Source: Candidatus Woesearchaeota archaeon (lineage in GTDB: Archaea > Nanobdellota > Nanobdellia > Pacearchaeales > GW2011-AR1). Taken from it: 64,000 nt of DNA. The translations under genes and the position numbers were made by a program. Each line of letters starts with the position of its first letter. The first letter of the stretch is position 1. The notes beneath the pieces are model-generated. The model was given only the letters and a program-made list of their open reading frames with translations. It made no database searches and was not told the DNA's origin. The stretch covers positions 41,185-105,184 of the forward strand of contig CAZJAO010000001.1 in NCBI GenBank assembly GCA_964544395.1. Reading direction: 5' to 3'. Positions 17,519-32,393 of this stretch are shown one piece after another.

Positions 17519-17881
17519 TTAGTATCTGCCTCTGCTGTTATTGTCTCTTCCACCGAAGCTTCTTCTCTGACCGCCGCCAAAACCGCCTTGTCTAGGTCCT
17601 CTGTTTCCAAAGTCTCTTCTAGGTGGTCTTGGTGCATCAGGGTCGAAAGGCTTAGCTTCAGACAACTTCAATTCTCTTCCTTTGAAGTCTTTTCCGTTCA
17701 ATTCAGAAATTGCTTTGTTAGCAGCTTCATCATCCGGAATTGTAACGAAACCAAAACCCTTTGATCTTCCGTTGAATTTATCTTTAATGAGTACAACTTC
17801 TTCAGTTTCAAAACCAGAAAAAAGCTCTTTCAAATCAGACTCTTCAACCGTGAAAGGCAAATTACCTACGTAAATTTTCAT
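17519..17881 (-). CDS. RRM-domain RNA-binding protein with a glycine/arginine-rich tail (bacterial glycine-rich RBP type)
   Basis: RNP-2 (KIYVGNL) and RNP-1 (KGFGFVTI) motifs; C-terminal RGG/GGF repeats; strong SD AGGAGG 7 nt upstream of the ATG. Confidence 0.9.
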   Translation of the reverse strand: MKIYVGNLPFTVEESDLKELFSGFETEEVVLIKDKFNGRSKGFGFVTIPDDEAANKAISELNGKDFKGRELKLSEAKPFDPDAPRPPRRDFGNRGPRQGGFGGGQRRSFGGRDNNSRGRY

Positions 17882-17988
17882 TTTATCCTCCTTACATTTA
17901 GTTAAGCGTAACAGAATTAGCTGTTTCTTTCCTTACTCCTCGTATTGCTGACATGCTATTGTTATAAAAGATGTGTTTAAAAACTTTT

Positions 17989-18069
17989 AGTTCCAAGATA
18001 GACAGTCCGAAAAGTAAGTAATAACCGAGAAGTGTCCGAATAGTTTTTCGGGCTGTCTAGTTCCAAGAT
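17989..18069. mobile_element. MITE-like miniature element: 11-bp direct repeats flanking 14-15-bp terminal inverted repeats around a ~30-nt core
   Basis: agttccaagat (17989-17999) | agacagtccgaaaag (18000-18014) ...loop... ttttcgggctgtct (18045-18058) | agttccaagat (18059-18069); the TIR/DR junction provides the TAG stop of ORF 18057-18437, while the left DR preserves the ancestral ...W N TAA reading. Confidence 0.55.
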
Positions 18070-18437
18070 GACATTACCTTTTTTGTATAATCTTTGCCCT
18101 TTGCTTTAATGGTAACATTACAAGTATAATATCTTGCAAATGTCTTGCCAGGCTTGTATGCTACTTTTATTGAAACATTCTCTATATCATTTAATTCAAT
18201 CTTTAATCTTTTCATTTCTGAATTAAACCATTTCTTATAACTCTCAATAACCTGTTTAACTTTTTTTGAGGTAAGATTTTCGGGAGTAATTGTTTCGTTC
18301 AATAGATTAATCTCAAATAACTTGGTGTTTTCAACAGGCAGGGATTCTATATAATGTAAAAATTCAACATTAGTTACACTAACAAAACTATCTGCTAAAT
18401 TATTTGCTACACCCAATAATTGACTAAATTTTCCCAT
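18057..18437 (-). CDS. hypothetical protein (3' end overlaps the MITE-like element)
   Basis: 126 aa, ATG start; C-terminal codons SSWN* are encoded by the duplicated 11-mer. Confidence 0.4.
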   Translation of the reverse strand: MGKFSQLLGVANNLADSFVSVTNVEFLHYIESLPVENTKLFEINLLNETITPENLTSKKVKQVIESYKKWFNSEMKRLKIELNDIENVSIKVAYKPGKTFARYYTCNVTIKAKGKDYTKKVMSSWN

Positions 18438-31513: not shown

Positions 31514-31555
31514 TATAATATATACTTTGCAGAATATATAAAGCTATCTTAAAAA

Positions 31556-31629
31556 TGGCCCCGATGGGATTTGGACCCACGACACCTAGATTAAGAGTCT
31601 AGTGCTCTACCAAGCTGAGCTACGGAGCC
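31556..31629 (-). tRNA. tRNA-Lys (anticodon CUU)
   Basis: reverse complement folds as GGCTCCG-TA-GCTC-AGCTTGGTA-GAGC-A-CTAGA-CTCTTAA-TCTAG-GTGTC-GTGGG-TCCAAAT-CCCAT-CGGGGCC-A; anticodon CTT; T-loop has C at position 55 (TCCAAAT), which is unusual. Confidence 0.85.
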
Positions 31630-31689
31630 ATTAATTAATACAATTAAAATTTGAGAAAATTCTTTAAATATCTATCTCCTTATAATAAA

Positions 31690-31961: not shown

Positions 31962-32393
31962 ATGATTGAAGGAATAGATTACATTGGAGTCACTATAGTT
32001 TCTTTTTGCCATGATGGTAATGGAAATTTTGTTATGGCAAAAAGAAAAGAGACTTGCAGAGATGAACAAGGGCGATGGGGTATCGGAGGCGGAGGATTGG
32101 AATTTGGAGAGAATGTAAAAGATACGTTAAGAAGAGAAATTAAAGAGGAGTATCTAACCGACGTATTAAATTATGAATTTTTAGGTTACAGAGATGTTCA
32201 TCGGCAAAATAATGGAAGCCCAACTCACTAGGTTGCTTTGGATTTCAAGGTTTTAGTTGATAGTAATAAAGTAAAGAATGGAGAACCGCACAAATTTGAT
32301 GAAGTTAAATGGTTTAAATTAGACAATCTACCATCCCCGATGCATTCCCAATTTCCTACTTTTTTAGAATTGTATAAGAATAGAATCTATTAA
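31962..32393 (+). pseudogene. Nudix hydrolase gene interrupted by an in-frame TAG at 32229-32231
   Basis: Nudix box GGGLEFGENVKDTLRREIKEE in the first segment (31962-32231); the same frame continues after the TAG as VALDFKVLVDSNKVKNGEPHKFDEVKWFKLDNLPSPMHSQ...KNRIY (to 32393), giving a normal ~143-aa Nudix protein if read through. Confidence 0.6.

Follow-up and report, generated by a model that had tools for sequence, protein, structure and literature searches.

A small MITE-like insertion at the last codons of a conserved DPANN gene appears to have regenerated the gene's stop codon

Introduction

The SM1-type elements of Sulfolobus are MITEs of about 80 bp that are non-autonomous and are mobilised in trans by DDE transposases. 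Prokaryotic MITEs as a group measure 50–800 bp and carry terminal inverted repeats (TIRs) of at least 10–15 bp together with duplications of 2–10 bp, and DPANN and Woesearchaeal genomes are among the most MITE-dense of the Archaea (PMC11602168). Integron cassette arrays are likewise known in Archaea, including Nanoarchaeota (PMC9668308).

The locus described here belongs to a DPANN archaeon. The window, by which is meant the whole 64-kb stretch of DNA that was analysed, is core chromosome and carries genes for Nre, topoisomerase I, a RadA/KaiC-like protein, RFC, FEN1, PolB, Cdc48 and many aminoacyl-tRNA synthetases. At the 3' end of a gene for a 126-aa protein in this window lies a short hairpin flanked by direct repeats, which an initial annotation made from the sequence had called MITE-like. 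How does this element compare with the MITEs already described? It shares with them TIRs of about 15 bp, a direct duplication that abuts these TIRs, a small non-coding sequence and a site that is intergenic and at the 3' end of a gene, and it further resembles them in its subterminal direct repeat, in a GC content above that of its surroundings and in its DPANN host. It differs from them in four respects: it is single-copy in the roughly 84 kb searched, no partner IS was found, its duplication of 11–12 bp exceeds the 2–10 bp typical of MITEs (a 9-bp reading of the duplication being equally compatible), and its size of 58–61 bp falls at the lowest end of the MITE range. The name MITE-like is apt as far as the TIRs, the duplication and the small size are concerned, but it does not extend to the multiple dispersed copies that are decisive for a MITE, and with one copy in about 84 kb the membership of a MITE family is unproven.

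Results

Architecture of the element

Reading of the sequence and a repeat search agree on a perfect 12-bp direct repeat, TAGTTCCAAGAT, whose two copies lie 70 nt apart from start to start (Table 1). The repeat search also resolved a 15-bp inverted repeat in which TAGACAGTCCGAAAA pairs with TTTTCGGGCTGTCTA at 14 of 15 positions (93% complementary), the sole mismatch being a T:G on the + strand, or an A:C when read on the − strand. Inverted and direct repeats share 1 nt on the left side and 2 nt on the right, and the arrangement DR12-TIR15-core-TIR15-DR12 is without gaps. Due to this overlap the boundary between the element and its target-site duplication is ambiguous, and three splits are equally compatible with the sequence, namely a 58-bp element with a 12-bp duplication, a 59-bp element with an 11-bp duplication, or a 61-bp element with a 9-bp duplication. 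The core, or loop, comprises 31 nt and has no coding capacity, and no ORF runs across the element as a whole. One part of the core, GTCCGAATAGT at 18034–18044, repeats in direct orientation the left-arm sequence GTCCGAAAAGT (18005–18015).

These results refine the initial annotation in its details. The direct repeat had been described as perfect and 11 bp long; it is perfect, but its length is 12 bp. The inverted repeats had been said to match at 14/15 positions, which they do when the arms are drawn as in Table 1. The core had been put at about 30 nt with a bracketed C at position 18044; the length stands with the correction to 31 nt, but the base is a T, and it pairs with G18014 only as a G:T wobble.

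The 59-bp form of the element (18000–18058) has a GC content of 42% as compared with 31% in the adjacent intergenic DNA, which is consistent with a foreign origin. The predicted fold has an energy of −21.5 kcal/mol on the + strand and −21.2 kcal/mol on the − strand. Its stem base is formed by TAGACAG and CTGTCTA, with GTTCCAAGA on both flanks in the same orientation, and termini of the TAGACAGYCCGAAAA type would be the ends to be expected for any matching IS.

Table 1. Features of the locus, with positions counted from the first nucleotide of the window.
Feature	Position	Strand	Remarks
RRM-domain protein gene, downstream	17519–17881	−	RRM_1, E = 7e-22; preceded by AAGGAGG Shine-Dalgarno
Presumed TATA box of the RRM gene, TTTTATAA	17962–17969	−	81–88 nt upstream of ATG; proposed from sequence
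T5 run AAGTTTTTAAAC, presumed oligo-T terminator of the topo I / 126-aa transcript	17979–17983	−	directly after the distal repeat
Relic TAA stop codon	17987–17989	−	
Distal direct repeat TAGTTCCAAGAT	17988–17999		− strand ATC TTG GAA CTA; in gene frame TCT TGG AAC TA(A)
Left TIR TAGACAGTCCGAAAA	17999–18013		repeat pair I1; fold
Core/loop with GTCCGAATAGT	18014–18044		repeat search, family D7
Right TIR TTTTCGGGCTGTCTA	18045–18059		last bases contribute to the new TAG (18057–18059, − strand)
Proximal direct repeat TAGTTCCAAGAT	18058–18069		TCT TGG AAC codons and first two bases of TAG
Gene of the 126-aa protein, insertion target	18057–18437	−	function unassigned; conserved DPANN family

The stop codon and the ancestral end of the gene

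What does this arrangement mean for the gene in which it lies? The ORF of the 126-aa protein starts 1 nt past the stop codon of topoisomerase I and ends ...TCT TGG AAC TAG. In the distal copy of the repeat the corresponding sequence is TCT TGG AAC TAA, which includes the relic stop codon listed in Table 1, so that the earlier statement that the left copy still encodes TGG AAC followed by TAA is borne out. Of the TAG that now closes the frame, the first two bases come from the proximal repeat and the G comes from the terminus of the element. Beyond the distal TCT TGG AAC TAA follows AAGTTTTT, which together make up a typical archaeal gene end with an oligo-T run, and in our reading this distal copy would be the ancestral end of the gene. 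When one repeat copy is deleted together with the element, the sequence becomes ...ATG TCA TCT TGG AAC TAA AAGTTTTT, and the reconstructed empty site reads ...ATGTCATCTTGGAACTAAAAGTTTTTAAAC....

The length of the protein is 126 aa in most of the 90 members of its family and in all 29 members that were aligned, and for this reason the insertion left the product unaltered. The C-terminus is ...SSYS (TAT TCT TAA) in most members, and among the 29 aligned the ending ...SSWN occurs only in the window protein and in P0010. The gene for P0010 (loci L013–L015) ends with TCA TCA TGG AAC TAA followed by AAATTCC, such that the two last codons, the TAA and the next AA are as in the distal junction, where the window copy with its flank reads TGG AAC TAA AAG. 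The agreement is limited to 11 nt, the length over which the sister-lineage gene end (L013), TGGAACTAA followed by AA(A), and the reconstructed empty site coincide. The central proposal of the initial annotation, an insertion whose target-site duplication regenerated a stop codon, is thus supported by the distal TAA copy, by the gene end of P0010 and by the conserved length of 126 aa.

A syntenic relative for an empty-site comparison was not found among the nine relatives' loci, in which synteny is not conserved, and the next relative of the 126-aa protein, which is 83% identical, has a different gene neighbourhood. The comparison with orthologous loci that had been proposed at the outset was successful in one part, as none of the nine relatives carries the hairpin, but without synteny it provided no empty site.

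The homologues of the 126-aa protein are labelled Nanoarchaeota or Woesearchaeota. The family has no Pfam domain, and a search of viral contigs returned no relatives of it. A confident AF2 model of the protein (pLDDT 91) has a pair of helices at the N-terminus, followed by two short strands, one long helix and a three-stranded sheet, and a Foldseek comparison of this model with the PDB gave no significant match.

Promoter and terminator context

The RRM gene lies downstream, and the most plausible placement of its promoter, as judged from base sequence, would have the insertion end about 19 nt upstream of the likely TATA box. Since the TATA box would then be downstream of the insertion, the element would be situated upstream of the core promoter and not in the 5'-UTR of the RRM gene, whereas the initial annotation had located it in the promoter and 5'-UTR region. 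On the side of the 126-aa gene, the T5 run begins 18 nt beyond the stem base. The insertion displaced the oligo-T run from the stop codon by 70 nt, and the upstream region of the RRM gene was likewise displaced by 70 bp.

Chance expectation and occurrence in the population

Could repeats of this kind have come together by chance? Four distinct inverted repeats with at least 14/15 matching positions and a loop of 3–80 nt are present in the window, and a flanking direct repeat of at least 9 bp is found at this one only. The probability of a second copy of the 12-mer TAGTTCCAAGAT at a fixed place is 1.2e-7. For the whole configuration we estimate a chance occurrence of about 1e-5 per window, and on this estimate chance can be excluded. 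A generic scan for TIRs combined with direct repeats in the window and in loci L031 and L033 returned the element as the sole strong candidate.

The identical sequence is present in 10 contigs, which derive from several metagenome samples and from three sources (ENA, Logan and JGI). Samples with the element are represented by ten ENA assemblies in the range ERZ27245386 to ERZ27245409, by SRR8464959 and SRR8464963 and by JGI 3300028800, and contigs of the sister lineage (P0010) occur in ERZ27245409, ERZ27245387 and JGI 3300031344. All 10 of the same-species contigs (10/10) carry the insertion in identical form, with no polymorphism and no empty-site allele seen among them, and the insertion is apparently fixed in the population.

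Elsewhere in the window, a perfect 14-bp inverted repeat with a 21-nt loop, TTTCTTTTTGCCAT at 31999–32012 and ATGGCAAAAAGAAA at 32034–32047, is located about 370 nt from a tRNA-Lys gene (31555–31630), and it is without flanking direct repeats.

Search for further copies and for relatives

DPANN archaea typically have genomes of roughly 1 Mb. No second copy of the element was found in the 64-kb window and its flanks of about 19 kb, that is in about 84 kb, or approximately a tenth of the genome if a size of ~1 Mb is assumed. A blastn-short comparison of the element with the window, the flanks and all fetched loci returned no second copy and no donor longer than 13 nt. None of the window ORFs checked had a Pfam domain of a transposase, an integrase or Cas1, and no transposase was present in the flanks either; an autonomous partner IS was found in neither window nor flanks, and the statement that the window contains no transposase holds for the ORFs checked.

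The search was extended to sequence collections by scanning for a pattern of two TIRs separated by a core of 25–45 nt. In genome_contigs, which holds species representatives, this pattern had 7 matches, all of them unrelated long perfect terminator hairpins of bacteria, and in metagenome_contigs it had 4 matches, again unrelated bacterial terminator hairpins; neither scan returned the element's own locus. The collection viral_contigs was scanned twice and gave nothing. A JGI contig, Ga0265338_10028940, carries the locus, and yet the scans of genome_contigs and metagenome_contigs missed it. Because a pattern that matches the window locus exactly did not recover it, the negative results from the collections are weak for this lineage. 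The blastn search for further copies that the initial annotation had recommended has thus been carried out for the window and its flanks, where it found none, while the collections contributed unrelated hairpins only.

A blastn search with the 88-bp region gave matches at chance level only among phages (a tape-measure gene, E = 0.2) and no matches among plasmids. Rfam searches of the window and of the relatives' loci, at gathering and at permissive thresholds, assigned no family. The best Rfam match to the window hairpin was MIR319, with 21 bits against a gathering threshold of 54, and this match to a miRNA precursor is spurious.

Discussion

An insertion with a target-site duplication of 9–12 bp is the best reading of the locus, and it is well supported. 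As to the nature of the inserted DNA, we favour an orphan MITE-like element, or else an internally or heavily deleted remnant of an IS, and would give this reading a probability of roughly 0.55. A transposase mechanism and mobility are what we infer for it, as is any effect on RNA.

The sequence of events that we propose is as follows. A short non-coding element of 58–61 bp with TIRs of about 15 bp would have been inserted by a cut-and-paste event with a staggered cut, of the kind catalysed by DDE transposases. Its target would have been the final codons of the 126-aa gene, with 9–12 bp of the target being duplicated in the event. Since the duplicate holds the last codons and the element end starts with (T)AG, a new TAG would follow right after the original last codon, and the frame would close with the protein unchanged. 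By its insertion the element would have moved the former TAA stop codon, together with the oligo-T terminator and the promoter of the downstream RRM gene, 70 bp away, and it would have given the topo I / 126-aa transcript a 3'-terminal hairpin of about −21 kcal/mol whose stem begins at the stop codon. Today the element is probably a fixed and inert relic, apparently in single copy.

The locus would thus be a neat single case of an insertion into last codons that is neutral, since the duplication and the element terminus together rebuild the stop. The element is otherwise ordinary, as neither a second copy nor a transposase was found in window or flanks, and MITEs are already known in DPANN: it is one more small TIR element for a group in which their abundance is established, with an unchanged protein and no sign of a regulatory effect.

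An alternative hypothesis is that the DNA was inserted by a route other than transposition. Filler or templated DNA could have been added during repair of a staggered break, or a tiny circular or hairpin DNA could have been integrated by site-specific recombination at the 12-bp core ATCTTGGAACTA, through a recombinase that may be related to the integron-like system in which relatives have the 126-aa gene as a cassette. The direct repeat would then be an overhang fill-in or a duplicated recombination core and not the footprint of a transposase. We regard this as the main rival, and as unlikely while still deserving of serious consideration. It would account for an element that is single-copy and for which no transposase was found in window or flanks, and it is consistent with the situation in relatives, where recombination-type boxes delimit the 126-aa gene as a cassette, where a tyrosine recombinase lies near the gene (L011) and where ORF-less units also exist (two of 207 bp in L016). 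In relatives, moreover, the gene is followed by a box, CAATTGAAC or CAATTGGACTTAAC, that is loosely like the TTGGAACTA core of the window repeat. However, this resemblance extends to no more than about 8 of 9 nt and may be due to chance, and the box has the same orientation in both copies of the window repeat, which misfits the logic of attC sites as well as that of L016. The stem of the window hairpin also has no AAC...GTT boxes at its base, the window does not contain the L016 core TAACCGTGTTA, and matches of the element's core to other DNA of the genome never extend beyond 13 nt. TIRs that abut a duplication are, by contrast, the classical signature of a transposase.

It has also to be asked whether the hairpin could itself be part of such a cassette system. 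In that case it would not be a transposon relic but a minimal ORF-less unit, left behind or inserted by the recombinase-driven cassette system in which related DPANN archaea have the 126-aa gene. The duplicated core with its TTGGAAC would be the relic of a boundary box, and this box would be the origin of the unusual SSWN C-terminus. If this were true, the window would capture a mobile cassette gene that has been domesticated as part of a housekeeping operon composed of topo I, the 126-aa gene and RRM. The resemblance to integrons is that a hairpin unit of attC-like size stands immediately after a small ORF, and that in relatives this ORF occurs in cassette-like arrays near a tyrosine recombinase. 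The differences are that the window hairpin has neither the inverse-core RYYYAAC box nor the core GTTRRRY box at its stem base, that the repeats flanking it are coding sequence copied in direct orientation, and that the window contains no array and no integrase. Because the hairpin is without AAC/GTT boxes and the L016 core motif is absent, it is not assigned to the cassette system, and we consider a cassette origin of the hairpin improbable.

A further possibility is that the hairpin is native, i.e. a functional 3'-UTR or terminator structure, or a regulatory hairpin of the RRM gene, that evolved in place, with the direct repeat being coincidental or the product of a small local duplication. 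A terminator hairpin had been named as the alternative in the initial annotation. The fold is stable, it stands between the stop codon and the oligo-T run as the stem of a terminator or 3'-UTR hairpin would, and it is fixed in all conspecific contigs. Nevertheless, on the mRNA-sense (−) strand, where the mismatch is A:C, the fold has a z of only −1.34 and is no better than that of shuffled sequence, and the T-run starts well beyond the stem. Archaeal transcription terminates at oligo-T and does not need a hairpin, and this genome does not otherwise place GC-rich hairpins behind its stop codons. The orthologues in the loci of nine relatives (including L011, L013, L016, L018, L035, L036, L037 and L038) have no conserved hairpin at the site, and Rfam has no family that matches. 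A native hairpin would in addition have to accommodate a perfect 12-bp repeat that abuts both arms, for which the chance value given above is about 1e-5. The terminator alternative is refuted by the relatives' loci, and native origin in the wider sense is very improbable and close to refuted.

An assembly or chimera artefact hardly merits consideration: hairpins can in principle mislead assemblers, but nothing in the data supports this, and the same sequence in 10 contigs from assemblies of different samples by ENA (MEGAHIT-style k141 names), Logan and JGI shows that the element is not an artefact.

Several other origins were considered and set aside. A casposon-type insertion would give a duplication of 14–15 bp. 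Elements of the IS200/IS605 or REP type leave no duplication; the REP/BIME elements and the IS200/IS605-type PATEs are similar to the window element in being short extragenic palindromes, but they are multi-copy and lack a target-site duplication, whereas the window element is single-copy with a duplication of 9–12 bp. The reading of the window hairpin as an integron attC site was rejected on box orientation, and a BHB-intron has no support in the fold.

Integron-like cassette arrays and the 126-aa gene

The neighbourhoods in which the 126-aa gene occurs are unrelated across lineages: the gene may follow topo I or ParA/MinD, or be part of a cassette array. Its context is ordinary chromosome in the window, L013, L018 and L038. 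In five relatives (L011/L012, L016/L017, L035, L036 and L037), the ORF is bracketed by a GC-rich inverted repeat. The upstream flank in these cassette-bearing relatives reads ...GAGTTGCCCCGAAGCGCG..., about 60 nt before the ATG, and downstream the stop codon is followed directly by AGCGCTTCGGGGCAATTGAAC.... The predicted duplexes of the flanks have energies of −24 to −36 kcal/mol, as compared with −3 to −9 kcal/mol in the window, L013 and L018, and the bracketing repeat shows compensatory and G:U changes between lineages. Folding of the flanks is strong, for example with z = −6 at L011:465–600. The relatives' flanks match no Rfam family, and their motif was not found in viral contigs.

A further observation comes from comparing window 18060–18068 with L011:462–470 and other loci. 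The last two codons of the gene are TGG AAC (WN) in the window and in P0010 versus mostly TAT TCT (YS) in the other aligned members, a difference at 5 of 6 nt. Speculatively, this looks like the replacement of a gene end and not like point mutation, and the WN gene end may, on an equally speculative note, go back to the TTGGAC / TTGAAC box located behind the gene in the cassette-bearing relatives.

With a conserved DPANN protein that has no fold match in the PDB, a housekeeping context in the window and a cassette in relatives, the host gene is the more useful by-product of the analysis. Downstream of the cassette-flanked 126-aa gene of L011, at a distance of 1.6 kb, a tyrosine recombinase is encoded at 2110–2895 on the + strand (Phage_integrase, E = 1e-44, with a SAM-like N-terminal domain), its gene being cut by the contig end; this could be the integrase of an array or simply XerA. 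The locus of relative P0004 (L016:1–3600) is an array with nine ..AAC-CGT-GTT.. core sites, one of which has CAT. Each unit comprises a conserved GC-rich structured module followed by a long stem, which encloses a single small ORF or, in the two 207-bp units, no ORF at all. No Rfam match was obtained, and the cargo ORFs have no Pfam matches. Arrays of this type resemble, by analogy, the cassette arrays of integrons. In L016 the 9-nt start box and the end box of one and the same unit are reverse complements at 45 of the 48 variable positions, whereas the boxes at the same junction agree in this way at 22 of 54, and such complementarity of start and end boxes is the signature of independently mobile cassettes.
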